Assembly (NCBI GenBank): GCA_964187785.1
Contig: OZ076409.1
Coordinates: forward strand, 40,674,001-40,738,000
Direction: 5' to 3'
DNA length: 64,000 nt
Source: Amphiscolops sp. MND2022
Taxonomy: Eukaryota
Shown here: piece by piece, positions 1-52,262 of the stretch
Layout: each line of letters opens with the position of its first letter
Position numbering within the stretch: the stretch's first letter is position 1
Notes under the pieces: model-generated
The model's input: the letters and a program-made list of their open reading frames with translations, nothing else
Told to the model about the DNA's origin: nothing
Database searches by the model: none
Position numbers and translations under genes: made by a program

Positions 1-179
1 GCCGCTGCCACCGCTGTAAAGTGTGACTTCCACTGAACCCAATTTGGATACGCGTTCGAGGGGAATCTGTCGGGTCTGAGGGCACCATTGTGGAAGATAC
101 GGTTCTGCTGATCGTTCAACACTTGCCCGACCGCCTGCATGGCCACCTCCAACAAATCTCGTTTCTCTTCTTGATTCAT
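1..179 (-). CDS. 5' end of a Ty3/gypsy gag ORF, running off the left edge of the window
   Basis: The ATG at 179 opens MNQEEKRDLLEVAMQAVGQVLNDQQNRIFHNGALRPDRFPSNAYPNWVQWKSHFTAVAA with no stop. The P-x-x-F...W-x-x-W-x-x-HF-x-AVA pattern is typical of gypsy Gag N-termini. It lies about 75 nt downstream of a PBS. Confidence 0.75.
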   Translation of the reverse strand, partial: MNQEEKRDLLEVAMQAVGQVLNDQQNRIFHNGALRPDRFPSNAYPNWVQWKSHFTAVAA

Positions 180-254
180 CGTGTTGTCGGGGGATAACAG
201 CTAAGTCCCAGTAAAACAATTCCAAAATAACAGCGATACAGAACTACGAAAATT

Positions 255-272
255 GCCCACCCAGGAGCGCCA
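255..272 (-). promoter_or_regulatory. Primer-binding site, probably tRNA-Asn
   Basis: The minus strand reads ...TTCTACA-G-TGGCGCTCCTGGGTGGGC. This is complementary to a tRNA 3' end GCCCACCCAGGAGCG-CCA, which resembles metazoan tRNA-Asn 3' ends (recalled, not searched). Confidence 0.75.
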
Positions 273-273
273 C

Positions 274-1220
274 TGTAGAAATTTTTGCTAGAGGGTCGGA
301 GAGAAATCCCAATAGCTCGATTCTAACAGAAAGGTTTAGTTTGTAGTGAGTAAGTTTCGTCCACGTATCGCGTATTCTTTTCACAAAGTCTCTCCGGTGC
401 TCAAGTTTCGACTCCAAAACACTATGGAAAAGTTACTTGCAATTAATACTCTAATTCAGGAATTATCTGGATAATACAAGTCGAAGATTTCCACAGTACG
501 TAACTACTCAATCAAGCAATAACAATAGCACAGTAGGTGAATGAATTATATACAATAACTCAACAGAACTGTGCCCAAAATCACGATTCACTCAAAGATT
601 TCCAAGTCCCGGACTTGTAACTTATTCGCTGCTCTCACAAAGCAGTAAGTCAAAATCGATCTCGAGTAGGTTTCTTGCCCGCACGGCTCAACTTACTCTT
701 AACTTCGTAATCGTTCTTCTGAGTCAATTCGGTCTCTTTTTCCCTCCCTGAGATATTTATTCATCAGCCGCATTTTTGTTGTACCGATGTCGCTCTTTTA
801 TTTGCATGCTTTTAACTTCATGTAGTTCCATTCCTTTTATGGCATGGCAGCTCCCTAGTTATGTTTCGGCCAGACATTCTTCGCCGCCAACGACAAATAC
901 TTCAACAAAGGTTGTACAAAGTTCACATTTCAATAATAATTCAAGTCCACCAAGATATTTCCAACATCGAGACAATCGTTCAATGATCTTCAATTACATG
1001 GTTTACATGCTCTATATGCGTAAGGGGTACTTTTCCTTCCTTTTGGGCGCAATGCATCGCGAATCGTTCCACCTGATTGAAATGCATAAATTATCACTTA
1101 AAGACGCTGATTTACATGTTTTATCATTAGTTTCTTTATATGTTCCGGGGTTGCATCTAAGATGACCTTGAGGTCCATCGGTGACCTTGAAGTTATTTGT
1201 CCTCATCTAGTGTTGCTACA
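274..1220 (-). mobile_element. 5' LTR of the gypsy element; right boundary uncertain
   Basis: Begins TGTAGAA at 274, next to the PBS. A candidate far end TTGCTACA at 1213-1220 gives TGTAG/CTACA termini. That CTACA could instead belong to the adjacent CTACATGCCAATTT motif, so the LTR may end elsewhere. Confidence 0.55.
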
Positions 1221-2138
1221 TGCCAATTTATATCGTCCTAGGGTCAATGGTTCCCGAGTTACATGATATGCGTATAGTTTGTTTACTTAAGGCGGCTACC
1301 CCCGCATGGGTTACAAATACGGTTTCGTTCACGTTATAAATCGACTACATTCATCCTTCCGGTTCGTTTGATATATTACAAGCCAAGGTCAAATGTCATT
1401 TATCGGTCGGGCCCGCGTGTCCGGTCCCGCGTGCCTTAAACAAACATTACTCCGCGCGTGGTGAACCAATCTATGTATCTTTCATGTATATTACTTAGGG
1501 TTACTATATGAACATATTGGGTAAGTTTCATGATCGTCGGGTCATCCGGTGGCTATTTACATAACATTCGGGGTTTATTTACTTAGGGTCCGTGCTCCTC
1601 CTACGCGCGTCATAGGGTTCCGAAAACATGCGCAAAGGGCTTAGTATCGTGTGGGCTATCAATTCTATATATAATACGACTTATTCCGTGCTTGGCCGAT
1701 GAGTTCATAGGGGGGTCGACCTAGGTCACTTCCGGTGCTAATAGCCCGGGGCTGGGGGGTCTCGGCTCGGTTCCGTTTTCATAGGCGTATGGCATAAAAG
1801 CTCAATTATCCGTGTGCCAAATTTCAAGTCTCTACGATAAGTAGTCTTTGAGAAAAACCTGACTGGGGGGGGTTTTTCGATTTTATGACGATTGATTTTT
1901 CATGGTGTATCTTAGAATATTTTCCCTCGAAAGTGGGACTTAGTAAAATTCGCTCTAATTGATCAATTTTGACTCAGCCGATTCAAATTCTTCCATCGTT
2001 GACGTCACTCTTTAACTTGATGACTTTGACAACCGCTTGTTGTGTGTTCGTCATTTCTTCGTTTACTGGTATTTGTATACTCAAACATAATTGCAAACAA
2101 CCACTCGTATTAACTTCAACCTCGCTGCTTAATTAGCT

Positions 2139-2996
2139 ATGGATAAATCCTTATACGATGATGTAGTTTTGTACTTAAGAGATGGGGCTTACCGCACAGG
2201 CAATTCCCGCAGTCGCTTCCTAGTCCGTCAGGCTGCGCACCGGTACTCCCTTTATGGCCGCCGATTGCGACAAGGTTCGCTCATTGTGCTGCACGAGGGG
2301 GAGGCCTTTGATGTTCTGATGTCTTTTCATCGGAAGAAGAAGCATATCCGGGGGCCAGAGTTTTATGCAGCTGTAAGGCGGGAATATGCTGTGTCACCTC
2401 TTCAGCCTCTGTGTCAGGATGTCGTGCGGAACTGTGAAGAGTGTACCGGCACGTACACGCACTACCGGAATACCGGTCCTATGCAGCATCTGTCCATAAT
2501 ACAGCGAAAGAACGCATGTAAGAAAATTGGAATTCCATTTGTGAGGGACATTGGCCTGCATGGTGCCCCCGATATCGATCCCTCCAAATTCGCTCCCATT
2601 TCTATAGATATGGCCGGACCACGCAATTGCTTCTGCATTGTTATGTCTTACGTCTTCTCGGGGACTTGCGAGAACACTGCCGCGATTGAGGAATGGGTGA
2701 AAAAGATCCGGCGCGGGCCCTATAGTTCCCTTTATTCTACCTTCGGTGCGGAGGCTCCCGAGTCTCTTGATGACGTCTCTTACTTAACCCAGACGGATGT
2801 TAAGATTATCGCTCGGGAGCTTGGCGTCAACTTCTACGAATATTTTCCAGCGACTAGCAATCGATCGGCCCGTTGGGAGGTTTGCTCTGGTAACAAGAAA
2901 GGTCCCGAAAACGGTGGGTTTTATTTTGCGTGGACACGAAGGGACGGGAGAGGACATTCATTATTAGTACGGGGCCTAAAACCCATATCGACGTAA
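2139..2996 (+). CDS. Transposon-related protein: integrase HHCC zinc-binding domain fused to an OTU-like cysteine protease domain, no DDE core
   Basis: Intact 285-aa intronless ORF. H64-X4-H69-X29-C99-X2-C102 is the gypsy/Ginger integrase zinc-finger spacing. The C-terminal half has OTU-like blocks: DMAGPRNC164FCIVMSYVFSGTCEN, YLTQTDVKIIARELGVNFYEY and GH273SLLV. Confidence 0.7.
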   Translation: MDKSLYDDVVLYLRDGAYRTGNSRSRFLVRQAAHRYSLYGRRLRQGSLIVLHEGEAFDVLMSFHRKKKHIRGPEFYAAVRREYAVSPLQPLCQDVVRNCEECTGTYTHYRNTGPMQHLSIIQRKNACKKIGIPFVRDIGLHGAPDIDPSKFAPISIDMAGPRNCFCIVMSYVFSGTCENTAAIEEWVKKIRRGPYSSLYSTFGAEAPESLDDVSYLTQTDVKIIARELGVNFYEYFPATSNRSARWEVCSGNKKGPENGGFYFAWTRRDGRGHSLLVRGLKPIST

Positions 2997-3545
2997 TTAA
3001 GGTTAGCGCTCTTAATGATTTTTCTCACATTTTCTGAGATCGCGACACATTTTCACAGAATGACTGAATTCCTAAATTCGAACTTGCTGAAATTGCTGCT
3101 CTTTGGGTTCAAACGTTAGAGGTCAAAAGAGTCCATACGAATTTCCGCCAACTCCATTTATGGAATCATATATGAGCAACTGTATGTAAGTTCCACGCCG
3201 TTCCACGAATATAACCATGAAACCCGTGATTTCCATACATTTTCATACATGGAATAATATAGCTAAAAACAGGAAACTGCCTTGGCTTAGAATAATTATT
3301 GTACTGAAACAGCGCGGGTAAAATAGAGCAATATAATTCAATGTATGGAATCGTGTGAAATTCAAGATGCTTAGTTTCAATCTATTTCTTTTTAAACTCT
3401 TGTAGATCTCCTAATGCAAAATTTGACCATTCCGGGAAAACGCCACGGAAAACACTTCGGCAAAACATTGCAAGAAACCTAATGTTTCGACTAAGATTTG
3501 TTTTGACTCTATTGAGTTTTCTAATACATTTTTAAAAATAAATAC

Positions 3546-3985: not shown

Positions 3986-4744
3986 CCCTGGTTGAAAAAA
4001 AAATGCGTTCCTTGCAAGGATCTTGCAAGATTTTCTTTCAAGGTCTTGCAAGATAATGCATTTTTCTGCAAGACATCTTGCAAGAATCTTGCAAGGAATA
4101 AATTTCCTTGTAAGATTCTTGCAAGGAATACTATTTCCTTGAAAGATTCTTGCAAGGAATACTGTTTCCTTGAAAGATTCTTGCAAGGAAAAAAAATTCG
4201 TTGGAAGATTCTTGCAAGGAATAGTGTTTCCTTGAAAGATTCTGGCAAGGAAAAAAATTCATTGGAAAATTAATTGGGTTGTCAAAACATACTTACGATA
4301 CTAAGATCACAGTATAACCATGTATAAAAAATATAGTAAGAATGTCGGAAATGGCAGCTACCTGTCAACAGAGTTCACAGTAATTGCTTGCCGAAGTCCT
4401 TATGCTGTATTTTTAGGGAGGCACTCAGCTCGTGAGATACATAGTATCGCACTTGACGAGACCCACGACAAGAACGTGGCCTCCTGCGGGTCTCAGAAAA
4501 GAAGAAATGTAGAATCAGAGAAAATGTGTAAAATTAATGAGAACAATTCGGAAAATCATGCAAGTTATCAACATTTCTGAAAAATCTTGCAAGGAAAAAA
4601 TTACCTTGCAAGATCTTGCAAGAAACAAATTTCCTTGCAAGATCTTGCAAGGAACAAATTTCCTTGCAAGATCTTACAAGTAATTGCATTTTTACAAGGA
4701 TCTTGCAAGATCCTTGCAAGGAACGCATTTTCTTTCAACCAGGG
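3986..4744. mobile_element. Fold-back MITE (CMC/EnSpm-like, CCC...GGG termini) with TCTTGCAAG subterminal arrays
   Basis: Left end CCCTGGTTGAAA..AAAATGCGTTCCTTGCAAGGATCTTGCAAGAT has its inverse at the right end. The 2-bp TSD is CA|...|CA. The interior (about 4270-4577) is unrelated sequence. Confidence 0.85.
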
Positions 4745-5779: not shown

Positions 5780-8700
5780 CCACTCCACGTTTTGACATAA
5801 CACCTGGGGTTTTCATTACATGTTAATAAAAGTTATTAGACGGATAATGTTATTTTATTTCAGATTGCATGACTGTAAGATAATGTAATAATATGGTAAG
5901 GTATGGATGTAATGCTTCTTCCGTTTCAGATATTTCTGACTTCGTGTTCTTTGGCCTTTTTGTTTTTATCTTCTTCATCGATTTTCATTACTACGTCGAT
6001 CTCCGGCGACTTTCTTTTTGTGGGGGGGGGGGGTGGGCACGACACCGAGGCCTTCACGGCCTTCTTTCCTTTTCCAGGAACTTTTTTTTCCGCCGGGTTC
6101 GCCATTTCCTGATGACTTTGCATTTCTTGGGGAATTGCCATTTCTTGAGAAATTGCGATTTTCTCGCCTTCTGTCTCATTGGCCTCAGGCTTTGACTCTC
6201 TCTCCTCTTCTGACTCGGCTGTGTCGTCCACGTTTTCTGTTATTGTAGTGTCCGTTGGAGTTGAGGTTTATTCCTCATCCTTGGTTTCTTCAGATACTAC
6301 ATATGTTTCGTCTTCCGACGACTCTTCTGTTTCATTCCATCTTGTGGACGGTCCAGCTTGTTCGTCTTTTGGGTTTGCGATTGTTCTTCTTTTGCGGTTT
6401 TGTTTTCGCTACATCCCGCTTTGAGTATACAATCTCTTTTTTTCCCATCTTTTGGTAGGAACGTAATGGTGTGGATAGTTTCTTTGACGATTTTCCCTGC
6501 TCTCTTCCTAAATTGGCTTTCCAATTTGGACCCTCGCGTCCTCTCCCTCACCATTATCGCGGAGTCTACTTCCTCCTCGAAGTCTGATGTTGAAAACTTT
6601 AGGCCTGGATCTACTTCTGAAACACCTTTAATTTTGTCTACTATGTTGCTTTTTACCGTATTCGAATTCCAGCCGTTCAATTTTTCGAAGGCGATTTTCC
6701 GTCTGCTTTTTCTCCCATTCTTAACGCGTATAGAATTTTCGACAACCCCGATTTGTCTTTTTTCAGTACTATGTTCTTATTCGTCCGTAGGCGTTCATTT
6801 ATGGTTCGTATTATTCGTTCGATTTTGCTATTTCCCCGGTGATCGCGCACTGGGCAGGTTACGTGATTTATTTGAAATTTTCGGCAGAATGTTTTAAACT
6901 CTTCGCTAGTAAATGCTGTGCCCGGATCTGATCTAATTTGCTTCGGGATACCATACTGAGATATATAGTTTTTTTGAAAATTCGATTACTTTCTTAGTTG
7001 TCGGTTTATGTAAAAATAGGGCATCCATCGGGCCATGCTGAAAAATTATCTATGGCTACTAATAAATATTTCTTTCCGTGTTCGGCGTTTTGAAACGGAC
7101 CCGCAAAATCCTGTGCGATTTCATCATTCGCTTTTCCCGATTTTGGGATTTTTCCGAATTGTTTCTGTTTTAGCAAAGGTTTAATGTTTTTAGCTGCGTT
7201 ATTGCACTGATCGCAACATTTTGCTCTCGTGACTACTTCTCGGTGTATTTTTGGCCACCAGATGTCAGAAATTTGCCGCAACATGGTGTCTCGACCCGGG
7301 TGTCCGTAGTGGATTGAATTCATGATCGAGGTACGTAAATTTGTTGGAATAACCAAACGTTCGTCCATGTAAAGGTAATTTCCAATGTCGATACTGAATG
7401 AATTGAATTTTTAACGCCAAGGCGCAGGTAATCTAGAAATTTTTGCTCCTTCATTGGTTTTTACCAATTGGATTACTTTTTGAATCGTTTTGTCGGCCTG
7501 ATAATTTGCGGGTAAGTACGAATCGTTGATTTTGTCAATAACATTTGACGTGTGATTAAGCGTCATTTTACTCTTTTCTCGTCCGCTTACTTTGCTTAAG
7601 TTTTGTACCGCACTGAAATTACGTTCGTTCCGCCGCGCGTAACTTTCTCCGCGTGCTGTACATCTTGTTCACTCTCCACTCTCAATACCGAATCAGGCGC
7701 GCGCGGCAGATTCATCGCTTTTGGCATCTCCAGTGAGGTTGTTTCATTCTCTGAACTAGCATTGATTTTTGAAATTGCGTTTACTGTAAACCAGTCGTTC
7801 CATAACTTTTCTGAGTTTATCGCGTTTCCTTTTATTTCGCTCAGGTGTCTTGATAGATAATCTGCGAAACCTAATACCCTACCTGGCGCATGAACGACTT
7901 CAAATTCGAATGGCAGAAACCTATCCACCCATCTTGTTAGGCGGCTGGAGAATGTTTTATTACTTCGATTTGGTTTTAACACTGATGCCAGCGCTTTGTG
8001 GTCCGAAATTACTTGAAATCTCACGCCGTACACGTAAGTTTTAAAATGCTCGATCGCCCAAACTACCGCTAATAATTCCATTCGTTGATTGAGTACTTGG
8101 ATTCAAAGTATGTTAGGAATCTAGACGCAAATGACACTGGTTTCCATTCTTGGTTACTTTGCTGGAGCTGTAGTACAGCTCCTAACCCTTGTTTGCTTGC
8201 ATCGCAAATATTTCGTAGTTTTTTGTCTTTCTGAAAATGTGTCAGTTCCGTTATTCTTTTCACTTCTTGGTTGAGTTTTAAAAATGCCGTCTCATATTCA
8301 CGCGTCCATTTCCACTCAGCTTCTTTCTTCAGTAGTGATCTAATTGGTGCGCAATTAATAGCTAAATCTGGTACAAATGTATTTAGTTGGTTGACTGCTC
8401 CAAGGAATGACCTGAATTCTCTCAAATTGTCTGGTCGCAATTTTACATTTGTCTGCTCTCAATTGCCAATTTGCGCTGTCTAACACCTTTAGGACTTCCC
8501 GGACTTTTTACATATATACACTTTTTTCACCTTTTGTAACTATTAAAATGTCGTCTATATACACAAATGTACACTCCATATTTACAAAAGTTATGTCCTT
8601 ATTTTCTGAAATTCTGTCGACTTTATTGACAGTCCGTAATGACCGGTTACGAATCGAAATGTACCAGTTGATTTTCCGGCGATGATTTGGAAATTACAGT

Positions 8701-10550
8701 GTTTCACCGTACTTTCATCTAATGGTACTTGACAACATGCGTATTTCATGTCAACTGAAGAGTACCATACTTCTCCTTGTTTTCCGTCAATTTTTTCTGC
8801 AGTCATGTCCATTAGATTTTCTAAATTCGGCATTTGGTTCTTATCTTTTGCAATTGAGTTGTTTAACGCTCTTGCGTCTAATGCTTTTTTTAGAGAACGA
8901 TCTTTCTTTACCGTCTTTACCGTTATCACTACCGGTTGTATAAAAACCTTCATCCTTTATCGTATCCACTTTCTCGATATGTCCTTGTTCTAATAATTGT
9001 TTAATTTCTTTATCTTGCAATTGTAGTGGTATTCTACGACCTTTCTGCTGAGTGACGCGCGTGCCTTCTTTCATGTCAATTTTAATCTTGTAATTATTTA
9101 CTCTACCGCGTCTCTTGAACAAATTAGGAAACTCTTCAACTAATTGCTCTGCCTCCGGACTTAGCCTAATCTCAGGATTTACACTTTCGCAGGAAATGCT
9201 AATTACAATATCCTCACGTCTTGTCGTAGGCTGTTCAATTTTGTATTTGAGAGCTGTGAGCCAATCACGACCGACAATCGATTTTGCTCCCTTCTTCGCG
9301 ACGAGCACTCTCGCCTTCCCTTCGACATCCTTGTTTTTCCCACCTGAAAGCTGACGAACATATATCCTAGCAGCGTTAGAGGGCGTCTATTGAAATCTAC
9401 ATAACGTTCATCATCGATCATCTCTCTGACGACAACCCAATGTTTTCCAATGATGCGTTCCAGCTCATCCATGCAAAGATAGACACCGGTGAGGCAGTAT
9501 CGATGATAGCCTGGAATTTCTTTCCGCAAATCAAGCCTTCTATCATGAATGGTTTTGCTCCTGCACCATTCACTTGCAAAACAATTTCGTCGTCATCCCA
9601 TTCCTCTGAATCTTCGGTTATGTAGTTTCTTCTTGCCATTCCTCTCCGTCTGCTCCGAAGTCTCTGCTTCATCTGCTTTCTTCTTTACGGATATTTCTGG
9701 TTACAGCATTTTTCAAGGTGACCGGTAATGTCGCAAAATTCACATTTATGATTGGTGGCAGGGCATTTCTTTATGTGGTCTGTTGTCAAGTTCACCACCC
9801 CACAACGAAAGCATTCCCTCTCATTGACCCTTTCCACCGCACATACCGGTTCGGTCTTGATTGCCACCTTTGAACTTTCTGCCACTCCTATCCCCATGGT
9901 CTTTCGTCTCTTGACGCCTTTTTCGTAGGAGATGGCATATTTCAGGGCATCTTGGGGGTCGTTAAAGGGTTTTACGCATAATTTCTCCTGGACTTTCTTG
10001 TTGTTCATGTTTAAAATGAACACGTCGTGGACTAACGTTTGAGTTGTTTCGCCCAGCTCACATCTTGATGCCAGCCCGTTAAGTGCGTGCCAGAATTGTT
10101 GCAGTGATTCGTTATTTTATTGTTTTCTGGACAGAAATTTATGCCTATCCAGAGTTCTATTGGGTGCCACAAGAAAGCAATTCCTGCATCTCTCGATCAT
10201 ATCCCGAACTCCCAATGTCCAGACTGACAAGTCCGGGTGTTTGTCTTTAAACATTTTCCTGGCGAGTTCCCCCACCGAACCCACCAAAAGGAATACCCAA
10301 GTTACGACTTTTTTCTCCGCTGCTTCTTCTGCCATATCCCCAATAAGTGCTTTTATCCTGGGACTGTTCGCGTCCGTGGTTATTGTCAACTCCTCAATAG
10401 AGATTGAATATTTTGCCATAACTGCTACAGCAAACAAGTCGAACCATCGCTCCCATTCCATTAGCGGGGATCTTGTGCTATCTGACCAGAACAGCGGCAG
10501 GCCGGGTAACAAAGAAGGGTTTTCTTTTTGTATTGACGCAGTAGAAGTTT

Positions 10551-10562
10551 CTCGCAGCGCCA
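10551..10562 (-). promoter_or_regulatory. Primer-binding site, probably tRNA-Ser(UGA)
   Basis: TGGCGCTGCGAG directly follows the LTR end ...TTTTACA. It is complementary to CTCGCAGCG-CCA, a tRNA-Ser type 3' end. Confidence 0.75.
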
Positions 10563-10716
10563 TGTAAAAGACTACTGAGAGGCAATGTACAAAGGAAGAA
10601 AGAAAGGGAGATAACAATGTATTATGAACTGTATCTCGTAGTAAAGGCAACAGCAACTAAACGTAGTGTTTTGTATTTTATTCTAGCATTTTTGTGACAG
10701 GTGTTAGTAAATAATA
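10563..10716 (-). repeat. 5' LTR (154 bp)
   Basis: Identical to 5626-5779 and abuts the PBS. Confidence 0.85.
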
Positions 10717-14248: not shown

Positions 14249-17200
14249 ATTACAACCATTATGTAAGTTACATTTAGTAACGAAAGTATAGCGCTTACAA
14301 TACAGTTTCATATTAACGAACTTTCTTACTTGGAAAGTATACAACATGGCGCAGTCAGATTGACCCCTACTCAGAACCTAGCGGAACGAATATTCAAACC
14401 CTTCCAGGAATGGACGAGACAAACAACACGTCGCCGAGGAACGGTGACCAATCTCACCAAATAACGGAACAGGTCTCGAGCAGGCAACTACCGTTCAATG
14501 ACACAACATCGAGATTGGGAGAACGGACTTGCACCCAAAAGCTCACCAAACCAAGCCTGGAGAAATAGGACAACTCCAGTGCTAACTTGTAGTGGCCTAA
14601 GTTCGTTCAATTCATAAACATTACGAAAAAAATTGACATCTCAACATAGGTAAGTTTGAAGGAAATTCTGCCACAAAGCCGTGATCAGCTAGAGATTGAA
14701 ATCAAAGACATATTTTTATAGGCAATGGTCGGAATGCACTCACGGAGATAACTAAAGCAGTGAGGGAAAGAGAAACTAGCTCCCTACCGCTGTACAAGTT
14801 ACACACTTTATTCAGACTACACTATACAACCGAAAGAAAAGTACAACACAACCGGACCGATTTCTTCGATCTCAAAAGAGAGAGCGGAGAATCAGCAGCA
14901 GACGTGTGAAACGAATATCAGAAGTCGAGAGAGAAGTTGAGAAATTCGAGCAGAAACTCGCAGAACTCCTATCATCAAAATTCCAATCACTCATAAGAAA
15001 AAAAATCACGGGAGAATACGAGCTGAAAAAAATACGCAAGAGCGACATGTCGGTCGAAGCAATAACATAATCCATACATGAACACATGTATGAGAAACTA
15101 AACGACTCACCTGAAACGGAAGAGGAGAAGAAAATTGACATGTCAAGAAGAGAAAACTAAAATCCACCAGAGAACAAACGGACCGGAGCACATAGTCCAG
15201 AAAAATAGAATGTAACAGATGAGGGGCACCCAACTGGTCCAAAGAACACGAATGTTCCGAAAGAAGGAGAGAATTGCGTAAAGTGTGGTTAAACTGGACA
15301 TTACGCCAAATGCCTCCGCTCATCACGGGGATTAAACTATGGTGCGGAAGAAGAAATATACAGTGCGAAAGAGGAGACTGGACACCCGACAGAATACACT
15401 CTGTGCAACGAAAAACTCATTCCCTGGGTGAAATGCAAAGAACGGCCCACCGATCTATACAGCAACGATAGTGGTCAATAACAGACCAATCAAACTTACA
15501 ATAGACACGGGCTCACCAGTGACTCTCATTCCAAAATCTAAAGTTAATAATACGACAACAATAAGACAGGTAGCGGCAGACTAACGGGACGTGAACGACA
15601 ACAGAATAAAGTTCGCTGGAAAAACAACAGCAAACGTCAAACTAGACCAAACCACACACCCACTTCTTTTACTCGACTGGAAAGTGAAAATGGGAATAAC
15701 ACTCGAATCACCAGAAATACCAACCACATAAACAGGTCGGAGAACGCCATAGAACGAAACATAACAACACTCAAAGTAAGTTCATCAAATTATTTACGGA
15801 AAAACAAACGGTAAAAAACATAGAAGTAGATATACAACTAAAAGAAGGGGCGAAATTGATCCAACAGAATGGTGGACCGGCACCAATTCACTTGCAATGC
15901 GCAGTTGAGAAAAAACTCGACAAACTCAAAAAACAAGGACATATCGAAAAAGCAAAAAACTTACAAAAATTGTTTCGTGAGCCCCGCAGTGATCACTTTA
16001 AAAAAGACAAATCAGTGCAAAAGGCCTTGGACTAACAAAAACTGAACAAAATAACGGTACAAAGAAAAGCTCAAATGCCTAACATGGACGAGTTGATATA
16101 AAGGATATCCTGAAAAGTAGTGGATTGACAGGCAGACGAAATCTGAATATCAAAGCTTGACTTAGATTTTGCGTACGGGCAGGTACTCAAAAAGAGCAAT
16201 GGACTTGTGTATTTGTGCGGTCATTGAAGGCAATTTCACGGGGTACTATCGATTTTTGAAAAGAATTCACGACATGCTGCCTAGCCGACATACCAACAAT
16301 ATTCCAAAAAACTGACCAGACGCTGGAAAACAAACAGCCAGCCTGATTAGACGACATTATAGTGGTTACAAGATATTCAAAACAAAAACATATGGCTGAA
16401 CGGATATTGACAAAACTGGAAAACAACGGATATAGACTGAATCATTCAAAACAAAAATTGAATAGATCGGACATAAAATAGATTAGAACGGCATCAATCC
16501 GCTAAAAGATAAACTGCTGGCTATAAATCACTGAAAAAGGAGGAAAACAAGAAGGAACGAAAATCGTTCCTAGACGCAATTCAATACCTGTCCAAACACC
16601 TTGAGAACCTTTCCGCTCAAACAGATATTTTGAGACACTTACTAAAAAAACAACAATCTCTGAAATTGGACAGAACAACATACCAATGAATTCAACAATT
16701 TGGAGCAAAAAATCAGGGAGATTCCGTTTCTGACACATTATAATTCAAACTACCCGAAGGAAATAACAACGGACGCTAGCACAATAGGACTGGGCGCCAC
16801 ACGGTTGCAAAAACAATCGGATGGTAAATTGATACTAATCGGATTTGCCATTCGATTTCTTTCCGACTCAGAAAAGAAAGACAAATACCAAACTAGAACT
16901 ATTAGTAGTCGTATGGAAACTGAAACACTTCCGTCTTTATTTAAACGGTAAACTGATAAAGATGCGGTAAACCGATAAACATTCAACCTAAACTAAACGA
17001 TAAAATCGAATGGACGCCAGAACAATAAACAATCTCGAAATAGCGGCCCCGTCCGCAGAAACAAGGAACCTCATAGCAAGATGGCACAATATAGTGAAAC
17101 CTGGTATTTACCGTCAATGCGGTGGCCGATGGAAAAAAATATTACGAGGCAAAATCTCTCAGAAACGAGCGACGGATAATAGAAGAACAACTGCAACAAG

Positions 17201-18325
17201 TGATAACAAGTGAAATCTGGAACGCAGAGGCAACCCACAAGTGGAGGGCTTCCAACCGCAGACGAGAAGACAAGAACAATGGACATACGACCCATTCTGG
17301 GGAGTAGACGGCCCACTGCAACTAGCGGATCAACAACCGTGGTTATCAAAACCGCAAACACACCAAGAATACATCCCAGTGGATATGGCTGAAATTGGGT
17401 TGGACACCAACCAAGACCCATCGGTACTAGAAGTACAGGCAACGAATTGGGCGAAATATGTGGGCGTTAAAAGCGTCCAAGATTCAAAGATGGATCAGAC
17501 ACCACGGGTCAATGCAGAAGGGCCAAACGACTGGGACCTTGGCAACGCGGTGAGAGCGACGGAGAAGACGTTCTCTACAGATTTGTAACATTTAATGACG
17601 GAAACGACTCCCCATATCCTGAAAACATAAGTCTGCCTCGAACGATAACAGCAAGACAACATACCGGAAGAAAAATTACATACCGGAAAAAGCTCTCAAC
17701 AAGATACGGTTTAGTCTTCTTTGAAGACTGTATCATTGTACCGAAACATCTGCGGGCAACGGTGATAAGTCTTCTGCGTAAGAGCCATCCCGCCATTAAC
17801 AAAATGTCTATGGCGGCCAGACCTTTCTGGTGGCCGAAGATCATGGAGGCTGTTCAAAAGAAATTCGACGGATGCAGCCCGTGCAAAATGACCGGTAAGA
17901 GTGTTAAACCTAACATACTTAAAACGAAAAATAAACAATTACCGGCACTGAGTAAATCGAACGAAGAAACCCAATTGGATTTAATTGGTCCAATCACAGA
18001 AAAGAGCCAAAGATTCCACATTCTACTTTCAATGGACCGGTACTGTAAATGGCCGGCGACAATTTTTTGTGAAACAACCGACAGACAAACGGCGGTCAGA
18101 TTTTTATGACTATCAGAACGGACAAAGCCGCCGCATTTACAGGTGAAACGCCCAGGTAATCTTCAAAAACAGTCCTATTAAGCTCATATACGGTACATTG
18201 TATATACATACTCCCACGGGATTGATCGAACGCGGAGTAAGAACACTGAAAGAAACATTACTAACAAATATCAAGGCGGGGCAAAGTCCAAGTAAAGCCT
18301 CAGACATAACGCTTGATGTAATTAG

Positions 18326-35154: not shown

Positions 35155-36197
35155 CTCTAGGTTACAAGAATCACAAATCTTGCAAAATTCTTCCGAAATT
35201 CTCGTCAACTTTGCATTTCTTACAAGAATCTTACAAGTTTGTACAAGAATCGCAAACTTTGCAAATTTGTTACAATGTCGAACATTTCTTACAAGATTCT
35301 GATAACATTTTTGCAAAAAATGCATTTTTTGGTAAGAAATTGTTACAGAAAATGTGATGTGTTATCTCGACCAAAATTTCAAAAATCATCAAACTACCAG
35401 CAACAACAGCCACAGTTGCCGTTTGCAATGCACAAATTGTCCCAGGATCCCAGAAAAAGGGTCCAAATTGTTAATTTTGAGCAAGAAGACTTTACATGCA
35501 ATTTTACCCCAGAAATTACTATAACGTATTCCAGCTATGAAACTCCGGACAAAAACTCCGAGAACCCTTCAGCTAAAGATAATAGGAATATGAATATGAG
35601 ACCAAATGAAAATACATTTCAAGGGCTTTCTAACGGTTCTAACCCGAACCTGCTGTCAGCTACTGTGATGGAGAAAATCAGTAAAAATACTACAAAACCA
35701 CCTGTGCAATGTCATATTGAAAACTATAAAAACCCTGAAAATTCTAGCAAAATTAAACCATCGGTTTCATTTCTTCTCCAGCCCATTTCAACGAGTCAGG
35801 AGACTGCTGAGAATGGAGGACATTGCTCTCTTAGAGGCAATGACACCACGCAGGGCTGTAATGTTGTAAGCGAAAGCTTTACAACAAACAATAACATCAA
35901 ACAATGCTCATGATGCAAGTAAGGCATTCCGATAACATAAAATCTAGATGCTCTAATATGGGCAATTGTGTCATTTTTCGCGTACAGATAGTTTTCTTTT
36001 GCAGCCGTTCAAACTTTTTGAGGCAGGAAATACAAAAAAATGTCAGATTTATGCATTTTTTGTAACATTCTGAGCAGAAAAATGCAAGTCTTGCGAGATT
36101 TTTGCAAGAGTTAGATTCTAAAAATGCATTTTCTTACAAGATGTTACAAGAATTCTTGTAAGAATTTTGCAAGAGTTGTGATTTTTGTAACTTAGGA
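35155..36197. mobile_element. TCTT(G/A)CAAG-family fold-back MITE with a long open frame inside
   Basis: Left end CTCTAGGTTACAAGAATCACAAATCTTGCAAAATTCTT; right end AAGAATTTTGCAAGAGTTGTGATTTTTGTAACTTAGGA. TSD not evident. ORF 35239-35913 lies inside. Confidence 0.75.
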
Positions 36198-50971: not shown

Positions 50972-52262
50972 TAGCGTTCGACAAAAATAATGAGAATAAT
51001 TATATTTTTTTGAAAAGAACATATCATCTGTTAGCGAAATCAAATCAAAATTTCCTTTGGTAAAATTTTTCAATGTATTATGGTTTTACTTGAGGCATGA
51101 TCAAATTTTGTTTACCCGCGCTGAATTCAGTATAAACTTCCGTTTTGTTGAGTTCATTTTAAAAATGAAAAACGTTAAGTATGTACTTGAATTTTTCTAT
51201 CGAAATGGTTCAAAAAATCCGCGAGAATTATGTGAAAGAACAGGCATTTCATTAGCTACCGTATATCGAAAAATTGGAAGAATTCGCAATGGAGAAAGCT
51301 TCGAAATAAGAAAAGGAAGAGGTCGCCCTCAGAAATTTTCTGCATCTCAAAAAAAGGCAATTACGCAAATTGCTTTGAGAAATCCTCTTTTTTCAGCCAC
51401 AGACGTTAAAAAGTGCTTCGAAAAATCTCACAAAATTTGGTGTCCTCCCGGACATACCATCGGACACTCTTGAGATCCGGAAAATCAAAAAAATGCCAAA
51501 GAAAGTTCCGAATATTTCTCAACAGCAAGAGATCAAACGACTGGACTTCTGCAAGCAATTCAATGTTCCAGGATTCTTCGATAATGTTTTCTTAACAGAC
51601 GAGTCTACCTTCCAGTTGCATCGAAATACCATCAAAGTTTGGTCATCAAAGAACAGCTCGTATCCTAATAAAAAGGTCCCAAAATTCTCCCAAAAATTAT
51701 GGTCTGGGGTGCTCTGTCGAAAAAAGGATTTTTCATGCATATCTACCAAAATAATGCGAATGTTAACTCTGAATTGTACCAGGACACCCTTGTCTACTTC
51801 ATACCTTATGCCAACAAGCTTTATCCAGACGGTTGGATTCTTGAACAGGACGGCGCGATCCCACATACAGCAGCCGGCACTCGAGATTACCTGTCAGGGC
51901 ATGGCATTCAACTTTTGCAGTCGCCACCGAATTCACCCGATCTTTGGACTATTGAGAATGTGTGGCAGATATTCAAGCATGAGATTGAGAAGAAAAATCC
52001 GAAAAATCTTGACGAACTTAGACAATATGCTTGGGATTGTCGCACAATTCTGAATTTAAAGACGAGGAAGAAATCGACAGATGCAACATACGAAAGATTT
52101 TCGAATTGTGTCAGAAATGAAGGAAAACTAGCAAAATATTGACTCTGTTTTTATGATACTAATTGTTTCTTTTCAAAGTTGACATAATATATATTGCTTT
52201 AATATATTCAGTTTTCGAATAAATTGTGTTTATTCTATTCTCATTATTTTTGTCGAACGCTA
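50972..52262 (+). mobile_element. Tc1-family DNA transposon (DD34E), 1291 bp
   Basis: Perfect 27-bp TIRs TAGCGTTCGACAAAAATAATGAGAATA (50972-50998 and 52236-52262), flanked by TA on both sides. Confidence 0.95.
51165..52142 (+). pseudogene. Tc1 transposase with three single-base frameshifts
   Basis: HTH, GRPQK, LTDES, MVWGA, EQDGA and SPDLWTIENVW motifs, with 34 residues between the second D and the E. About 326 aa if repaired. Confidence 0.9.

Follow-up and report, generated by a model that had tools for sequence, protein, structure and literature searches.

The open reading frame (ORF) at positions 2139 to 2996 of a 64,000-nt stretch of the Amphiscolops sp. MND2022 genome (assembly GCA_964187785.1, contig OZ076409.1, positions 40,674,001 to 40,738,000, forward strand; here called the window) is long terminal repeat (LTR) cargo of a mobile Ty3/gypsy element and not a stand-alone gene. 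Its product, P0001, is predicted to consist of an integrase N-terminal domain followed by an OTU fold, and the ORF is kept under purifying selection as a protein. A preliminary description of the ORF had noted an integrase zinc finger fused to an OTU-like protease without an integrase core, and had suggested either a stand-alone accessory protein or a domesticated or simply deleted Ginger derivative. The idea of an accessory protein is supported by our analysis; "stand-alone," "domesticated," and "simply deleted" are not supported, given the location inside a mobile gypsy LTR. P0001 would most likely work like a viral accessory deubiquitinase. In the explanation that we favor, and that we consider evenly balanced between true and false, this antisense LTR gene would encode a trans-acting protease for ubiquitin or a ubiquitin-like protein, which its zinc finger would guide to DNA or chromatin and which would there remove host marks that restrain the element.

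The ORF and the carrier element have the following parts in the window (P0110 is a database relative described below):

2139..2996, plus strand: antisense ORF encoding P0001, ATG to TAA, 285 aa, uninterrupted
2139..2450, plus strand: residues ~1 to 104, integrase N-terminal extension (YPYY-type motif) and HHCC domain, from alignments with Ty3 and foamy virus integrases
2463..2546, plus strand: residues ~109 to 136, pre-OTU helix with the near-invariant C127, from HHalign to P0110 residues 492 to 656
2571..2984, plus strand: residues ~145 to 282, predicted OTU-fold cysteine protease with candidate dyad C164/H273, from fold comparison and residue tally
274..3029, minus strand: 5' LTR of a gag-pol-env Ty3/gypsy element, 2,756 bp, TG...CA, from identity to partner LTRs
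274..1870, no strand assigned: non-coding LTR part, whose 400-nt blocks show 74 to 96% conservation across subfamilies, including those with a swapped ORF cassette
256..272, minus strand: primer-binding site (PBS), complementary to the 3' end of tRNA-Asn(GTT), from a match to genomic tRNA-Asn(GTT)
1..200, minus strand: start of the gag frame, a 347-aa frame with a CCHC knuckle that leaves the window at its left end, from neighboring sequence
3030..3034, no strand assigned: target-site duplication TTTTC, with its partner at the far end of a tandem array, from flank comparison

The LTR at 274 to 3029 is 99.6 to 99.8% identical to two LTRs 12.1 and 24.2 kb to its left, and it is the outermost of the three LTRs in a tandem LTR-internal-LTR-internal-LTR array that continues leftward for ~24 kb past the window edge. 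The ORF runs antisense to the minus-strand gag, pol, and env genes, and its stop codon lies 33 nt from the outer LTR edge, a position that would correspond to U3; the promoter and R/U5 presumably lie within the non-coding part (274 to 1870). A polypurine tract (PPT) precedes the 3' LTR. The carrier pol frame (1,420 aa) has Pfam matches to protease, reverse transcriptase (RT), RNase H, H2C2, rve, and an integrase C-terminal domain, in the order PR-RT-RH-IN, and the element thus has its own complete integrase. The env-like gene gives a weak Baculo_F match (E = 3.7e-4, below the cut-off) and encodes a hydrophobic leader, an RDRR motif, and a C-terminal hydrophobic stretch; it is split over two frames in both elements of the array and unbroken in some other copies.

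Three further observations concern the 3' region of the carrier. Between env and the 3' LTR lies a fourth sense-strand frame of ~180 aa (L033:1049-1594, minus strand) without a Pfam match, which is 45 to 64% identical between subfamilies and was not detected in the 14.6-kb family; a single rough dN/dS estimate of 0.78 was not significant. A conserved short palindrome, which carries AATAAA on both strands in close subfamilies, lies just inside the polypurine tract and could be a poly(A) signal or an RNA hairpin. On the ORF strand, an AATAAA 29 nt beyond the 3' LTR occurs in 6 of 13 elements; it belongs to a short palindrome in which the other strand also reads AATAAA, and we do not take it as a proven poly(A) signal.

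The ORF is one of many. Searching the Amphiscolops genome (1.07 Gb) at E <= 0.001 gave at least 139 matches, with 136 of 222 candidates scored; many of the matches form same-strand pairs ~12.1 or 14.6 kb apart, and many carry stops. We fetched 16 regions, picked from the best and the most divergent matches. In thirteen we found a complete element whose two LTRs both contain the ORF, opposite to gag, pol, and env, a few of these LTR copies being broken; another region is a solo LTR, and the last two showed no internal genes within 10 kb. All 13 full elements are flanked by 5-bp target duplications. Their LTR pairs are 98.8 to 99.9% identical in 12 cases and 96% identical in one, indicating that the insertions are recent. 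An assembly artefact was set aside on account of the distinct target duplications on several contigs and of near-identical proteins in an independent collection. Open alleles occur at about 98, 90, 67, and 35 to 37% identity, and none of the matches inspected has a core-sized gap between the two halves.

A shorter derivative with a period of ~6.85 kb was found at L127 (C10:4957801-4967800), at L128 (C3:79108701-79118700), and as a third pair near C3:50308745/50315595. Its LTRs break off near codon 74 of the ORF, only gag and protease remnants were detected in it, and it is apparently non-autonomous. In the two of three such pairs that were fetched, the LTRs are 99.3 to 99.7% identical, and the ORF is therefore dispensable in cis. 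Other repeats were encountered as well. The C10 element (L043, C10:48327306-48329010) is inserted into a 48-bp tandem repeat array, and many contigs carry a gypsy family of high copy number, with many intact copies, whose ~1,610-aa open frame includes the integrase.

Selection on the ORF was estimated by the Nei-Gojobori method for three subfamily pairs. The dN/dS ratio was 0.174 between P0001 and the C10 allele (Fisher P = 3e-15) and 0.138 and 0.102 for the other two pairs, compared with 0.045 to 0.125 for gag and pol in the pairs tested. The OTU part gave 0.07 to 0.14 in unsaturated comparisons with P0001 and within the C8 clade, and 0.41 in one pair with few changes; the N-terminal part gave 0.16 to 0.48, so that the OTU part is mostly the more constrained. 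Sister copies that are 98% identical have ratios of 0.56 to 1.0, on two or three synonymous changes each, which is the pattern expected from decay after insertion. These near-neutral values, together with the many matches that carry stops, are what a neutral passenger would leave, whether as a deleted Ginger copy hitchhiking in the LTR or as a host-domesticated gene. Against this stand the ratios of 0.10 to 0.17 between subfamilies, the frames that stay open down to 35% identity, and the unvarying placement and orientation of the ORF within LTRs of elements that have target duplications; we consider this reading largely refuted and very improbable. The preliminary description had named as its own test a lone core-deleted copy without selection; what we found instead were many copies, purifying selection, and no core-sized gap.

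The sequence features first reported for P0001 are all present. Its stop-to-stop frame of 287 aa is the longest of the 59 window frames of at least 100 aa (the runner-up has 250 aa), the zinc ligands are spaced H64-X4-H69-X29-C99-X2-C102, and the Cys loop reads GPRNC, with C164 and the candidate H273. The absence of an integrase core was likewise borne out, as a Pfam scan of P0001 gave no rve match. The surrounding elements are indeed decayed. The description of the ORF as CpG-rich proved uninformative and was set aside: its observed/expected CpG ratio is 1.06, near the 0.94 of the window beyond position 3029, and the ORF is merely richer in G+C (51% versus 37%). Neither domain of P0001 passes its Pfam cut-off. 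Integrase_H2C2 reaches E = 0.075 in P0001 and 0.0007 to 0.0009 in two other alleles, while P0001 and seven other gypsy-family copies have no PF02338 (OTU) match. A sequence search of the PDB gave two chance-level matches with P0001 and none with alignment A2, and the ESM Atlas gave no usable match for P0001 or P0096.

Structure prediction supports both domains. AlphaFold models of P0001 reached a pLDDT of 76.7 with 13 alleles and 90.5 with 25 relatives, and a VIA-align comparison of the model with 48,161 chains returned 13 at Z >= 8, comprising 11 OTU structures and two integrase N-termini. The best OTU match was OTUD3 (4bou; Z 11.0, rmsd 3.4, 124 aligned, residues 145 to 281), followed by OTUD1 (Z 10.8) and nairovirus OTUs (Z 8.6 to 10.1, from residue ~100). 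Residues 2 to 103 matched the integrases of Ty3 (7q5b; Z 8.3, rmsd 4.6, 101 aligned) and foamy virus (4bac; Z 8.2, rmsd 3.2, 84 aligned), and the N-domain matched that of murine leukemia virus (MLV) with Z 6.2. Foldseek found four OTU matches at E <= 0.001 (E = 2.9e-4), and the first model agrees. The outcome in which no OTU fold would be predicted, also anticipated in the preliminary description, was thus not observed.

The candidate catalytic residues are strongly conserved. Of the 25 rows of relatives in alignment A3, 24 have C164, and of the 21 rows that extend to H273, 20 have this His; the corresponding counts are 24/24 for H64 and 24/25 for both C99 and C127. C164 and H273 align with the GDGNC Cys and the HVD/HYE His of relatives that include three passing the Pfam OTU cut-off, and they are kept across relatives that are only 15 to 36% identical. 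In canonical OTU proteases, we take the Cys loop to carry an Asp at Cys-3 and the third triad residue to be an Asp or Asn at His+2; the latter position is D or E in six of seven canonical relatives. By fold and by the positions of Cys and His, P0001 would belong to the OTU cysteine protease superfamily, although by motif it is not of the canonical OTUD type, and the modeled protease probably has some catalytic activity.

The degenerate catalytic loop would also suit a weak or dead decoy, that is, a ubiquitin-binding or dominant-negative protein or a self-limiting regulator of copy number, possibly acting together with an antisense RNA. The antisense orientation would give an RNA complementary to U3, and a bare integrase N-terminal domain could poison intasomes. 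Conservation of C164 and H273 at 15 to 36% identity is hard to explain without catalysis, however, and the carriers are young and multicopy, so we judge a decoy to be quite unlikely.

The origin of the protein was approached with a profile search of 1.84 billion representatives, which gave 204 matches at E <= 0.001; 150 of these were listed and 41 of the listed were Pfam-scanned. Among the matches listed are the ~300-aa stand-alone H2C2 and OTU proteins P0088, P0096, and P0126, as well as P0162, which aligns without a Pfam match, and the 668-aa H2C2-rve-OTU protein P0110, which we call Ginger1-like from this layout and which is known from the protein alone. A profile of 13 gypsy alleles scored 23 bits on each of two P0110 segments, residues 1 to 125 and 500 to 655, compared with 0.6 bits on the element's own Pol, which argues that the halves were not derived from that Pol. 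The ~370 P0110 residues between the matched ends have no counterpart in P0001. HHalign of the P0001 family with P0110 (probability 85%, E = 5.8e-6) placed C164 on GDGNC and matched the pre-OTU helix, which is found in Ginger1-like and other transposon OTU proteins as well. Both halves of P0001 thus match the two ends of a Ginger1-like protein, in line with the origin first suggested for it, and the simplest reading is that P0001 arose from a Ginger1-type transposase by deletion of ~370 central residues. P0001 itself is not a Ginger1 element: it has no DDE core, GPY/F motif, or terminal inverted repeats, and the mobile unit makes 5-bp duplications. No inverted repeats bracketing the ORF were present among the 25 longest of the 72 inverted pairs in the window.

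P0021, P0042, and P0096 have no close match in the Amphiscolops genome (best identities of 36%, 31%, and 25%, respectively), and so the family probably extends to other organisms. Regarding the genomic context of such relatives, a metagenome scan confirmed none of 585 pattern matches and a viral scan found no loci. Five other proteins (P0056, P0069, P0070, P0087, and P0109) combine three repeats of the same integrase N-terminal module with THAP and D-Tyr-tRNA deacylase domains, indicating that this module has been reused elsewhere without a DDE core. OTU-like frames also occur in a different setting. A 2,244-aa open Helitron frame (L098, C13:25885213-25891947) has an N-terminal OTU, Rep, a PIF1 helicase, and a weak endonuclease match, and on a 13-kb contig (C1676, L100) an OTU-like frame lies beside Rep-like and helicase-like frames; the contig could represent another kind of Helitron-type element, or DNA from a foreign source.

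A sister family of zinc-finger::OTU proteins, 290 to 330 aa long and with 105 matches in the same genome, emerged when we searched with P0096 and PF02338. We fetched 21 loci (5 plus 16) from the top of the list, and in all 21 the sister gene is antisense to and directly beside a BEL/Pao integrase, mostly between the integrase and a 3' LTR of 250 to 320 bp:

C1:86423005-86424048 (L090), C3:92749102-92750085 (L087), and L111 to L126, antisense to the integrase: BEL/Pao zinc-finger::OTU genes

Peptidase_A17 and DUF5641 confirm BEL/Pao for one element; the others were assigned by tblastn with its proteins and by LTR pairs. The sister proteins have G(D/N)GNC-like loops and an HVD motif, with most keeping both GNC and HVD, and one of five passes the PF02338 cut-off. 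In a young subfamily, the open frames are 344 aa long and the identity of LTR pairs goes up to 100%. Between subfamilies, pS is 0.75 to 0.84 and pN is 0.31 to 0.42; a closer pair has a dN/dS of 0.18 (P = 0.003), and two other close pairs gave 0.75 and 0.81, which were not significant.

An unrooted tree of the OTU domain (26 rows) unites the BEL proteins in a single supported group (100/100); on a separate, long branch (100/100), the gypsy alleles are joined by five database proteins. We did not use this tree as proof of one or two captures, since it is unrooted and 7 of its 23 inner branches are open; either one capture followed by transfer or two captures would fit it. The long, fully supported gypsy branch, along which Cys and His are kept while the Asp at Cys-3 and the Asp or Asn at His+2 are lost, would fit an active protease on a substrate other than ubiquitin, for example a host restriction factor or an element protein, comparable to dyad-type viral OTUs acting on polyproteins. 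The similarly reduced OTU protease of turnip yellow mosaic virus (TYMV PRO) has broad specificity (PMC3968130). We nevertheless regard such a substrate as improbable, as the element already encodes an aspartic protease, most BEL sister proteins keep the GNC loop and HVD, and the nearest folds are deubiquitinases.

ORF alleles are exchanged as cassettes between elements. Compared with the window element, the C6 and C8 elements are 98 to 99% identical in RT, 100% identical over 260 aa of integrase, and 98 to 99% identical in env, while their ORF halves are 34 to 40% identical, with N-domains at 34 to 36%. For the C13 element, the values are 95% in RT and 61 and 72% in the two ORF halves. LTR identity to C6, C8, C2b, and C9b is 74 to 93% over the first 1.6 kb and drops to ~46% in the ORF cassette. 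From the established mechanics of reverse transcription, a gene in U3 would be swapped when the template is switched from one co-packaged RNA to another.

This exchange is in keeping with a host-facing factor and argues against a tightly co-evolved interface between the ORF product and the integrase of its own element. It therefore bears on the possibility that P0001 is an integration cofactor, in which the zinc finger would dock on the element's own integrase or intasome while the OTU domain guards integrase from ubiquitin-dependent degradation or tunes post-insertion repair. Such a protein would perform in trans the role that the fused OTU may play in Ginger1, and Bao et al. suggest that the Ginger1 OTU and Ulp1 domains act in transposition or repair (PMC2836005). 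The N-domain does match intasome N-terminal domains of Ty3 and foamy virus, and all carriers seen are DDE-integrase elements. Yet identical integrase stretches travel with N-domains that are 34 to 36% identical, relatives travel with BEL integrases, and the N-domain did not come from the element's own Pol. We consider this cofactor role unlikely; of the two targets offered in the preliminary description, integrase multimers and chromatin, the former is weakened by these findings, while the accessory role as such stands.

The course of events that we propose for an anti-silencing protease would begin with a Ginger1-type transposase that lost its DDE core and GPY/F region, so that its first ~125 and last ~170 residues became fused. 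LTR elements would then have captured this mini-gene in antisense orientation close to their 3' end. In BEL/Pao it lies after integrase and before the 3' LTR; in the gypsy lineage, the LTR would have grown around the gene. Because of its U3 position, the gene would be duplicated into both LTRs by reverse transcription, and recombination would let families trade it as a cassette. Antisense transcription from the LTR would yield the trans-acting protease, the basic integrase-type N-domain (10 K/R in 52 aa) would bring it to DNA or chromatin, and the removal of host ubiquitin or ubiquitin-like marks that restrain the element would counteract silencing. The wider statement, that LTR elements of this animal lineage at least twice (gypsy and BEL/Pao) gained a virus-style deubiquitinase from a core-stripped DNA transposase, expressed antisense from the LTR as an interchangeable cassette and erasing ubiquitin- or SUMO-type silencing marks, is one that we put forward tentatively and hold to be somewhat doubtful.

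Several observations weigh against this proposal. P0001 has P161 at Cys-3 and L275 at His+2, and in all eight own-genome gypsy alleles aligned the Cys-3 Asp is missing and His+2 is hydrophobic, a reduced catalytic set that could leave the protein with weak, altered, or no activity. In 4 of 25 rows, three of them open-frame alleles of the own genome, Arg takes the place of the fourth zinc ligand, C102. On the N-domain, the gypsy Gag-Pol-type protein P0121 scores 43 bits, above P0110, and a full-length Ginger1-OTU donor was not found in the own genome by a search that was swamped by gypsy integrases, all 66 scored matches (of 26,376 candidates) covering the integrase part of P0110 only. A sequence-specific anti-silencer might need a motif, and no 7- to 9-mer in the non-coding LTR was enriched above simulated maxima. 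Binding to DNA or chromatin is suggested by fold likeness and the basic N-terminus, and we infer transcription of the ORF, catalysis, substrate, and the anti-silencing effect. One RNA run (0.06 share of words) gave 30 contigs, mostly <90% alike, with one piece covering 2564 to 2804; such contigs are strandless and may contain DNA, and the result is uninformative. A complex prediction of residues 105 to 285 with the genome's ubiquitin scored 0.01, without an alignment or controls, and has no bearing either way. Regarding the reduced catalytic set, TYMV PRO has neither a third catalytic residue nor a full oxyanion hole (PMC3968130) and still removes ubiquitin, and the loss of canonical residues is therefore not disqualifying.

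OTU domains are known from Ginger1 and Helitron proteins (PMC2836005). As in Ginger1, P0001 has a YPYY-type motif and H2C2 at its N-terminus and an OTU at its C-terminus; unlike Ginger1, it lacks the DDE core and GPY/F, has 285 aa instead of 500 to 800, possesses neither terminal inverted repeats nor its own 4-bp duplication, and is carried by an LTR. Domesticated Ginger1 genes, by contrast, keep the core (PMC12863088). The carrier resembles errantiviruses and other envelope-carrying Ty3/gypsy elements, which are widespread (Chary and Hayashi, PMC13524379), in its gag, PR-RT-RH-IN pol, LTRs, PBS, and PPT, and it has the env-like gene with the weak Baculo_F match. It differs from them in its LTRs of 2.7 to 3.5 kb with a protein-coding antisense gene and in its fourth sense ORF, and the terms "OTU," "antisense," and "accessory" are absent from the main text of that paper.

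Extra and antisense ORFs are themselves known in LTR elements. Plant Retand elements have an antisense ORF near the 3' LTR (PMC11963269), rotifer ORF3s exemplify enzymatic cargo common to unrelated retroelement groups (PMC5408684), and a mussel Steamer-like element, an LTR element of a marine invertebrate, has an antisense ORF for which antisense transcription from the 3' LTR was shown (PMC10974842). Their cargo is TRP28, a GDSL lipase, a DEDDy exonuclease, or a 67-aa peptide, unlike that of P0001; the plant and rotifer ORFs are described in the internal region and not inside the LTR, and the term "OTU" does not appear in these three texts. Full-text literature searches, which did not extend to Repbase, to journals behind a subscription, or to the PMC13524379 supplementary tables, gave no OTU gene in an LTR retroelement, no core-less H2C2::OTU protein, and no such gene inside an LTR.

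The closest functional parallel would be the viral OTU deubiquitinases (nairovirus L, arterivirus PLP2, and TYMV PRO), in which a parasite uses the OTU fold and which remove ubiquitin to blunt host defense (PMC3968130). P0001 residues ~100 to 281 align with nairovirus OTUs, and the catalytic set is reduced as in TYMV PRO. In contrast to these polyprotein domains, the predicted protease of P0001 forms a protein of its own together with an integrase zinc finger, and sequence identity is 7 to 17%. HBZ of human T-cell leukemia virus type 1 (HTLV-1) is similarly an antisense accessory gene at the 3' end, with no homology claimed. The sag gene of mouse mammary tumor virus (MMTV) and nef of human immunodeficiency virus (HIV) are accessory genes in or overlapping U3. 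In contrast to all three, the cargo here is a predicted enzyme that would have been taken from a DNA transposon.

To our knowledge, counter-defense genes are well known in animal viruses and scarcely so in animal retrotransposons, and if our proposal is true, P0001 would be an animal retrotransposon anti-silencing enzyme. The reason why transposons keep OTU and Ulp1 domains has been only a suggestion since Ginger was described; a protease kept under purifying selection after loss of the core, in two unrelated retroelement superfamilies, would indicate a value separable from cut-and-paste chemistry. With a soluble protein of 285 aa, alleles from 98% to 35% identity, and a sister clade with canonical motifs, the question of which ubiquitin-like mark is removed becomes directly testable. 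An 860-nt gene in U3 is, moreover, an unusual LTR architecture, and RT-centered annotation would miss such genes.

The rest of the window holds two decayed gypsy-type elements (~6300 to 10656, minus strand, and ~15700 to 18109, plus strand), a Tc1-like DDE_3 remnant (~51000 to 52142, plus strand), and the 250-aa runner-up frame (35161 to 35913, plus strand), which is of low complexity and without a Pfam match. An element resembling a miniature inverted-repeat transposable element (MITE) lies at 3992 to 4738, with 36-nt terminal inverted arms (97%) and internal 31- and 29-nt tandem repeats. Elsewhere in the genome, tRNA-Asn-like units, repeated in tandem about every 198 bp, form an array that extends along C7 from about 47,638,000 onward, and most of the listed members of 404 genome-wide matches to the tRNA-Asn-like pattern lie in this array.

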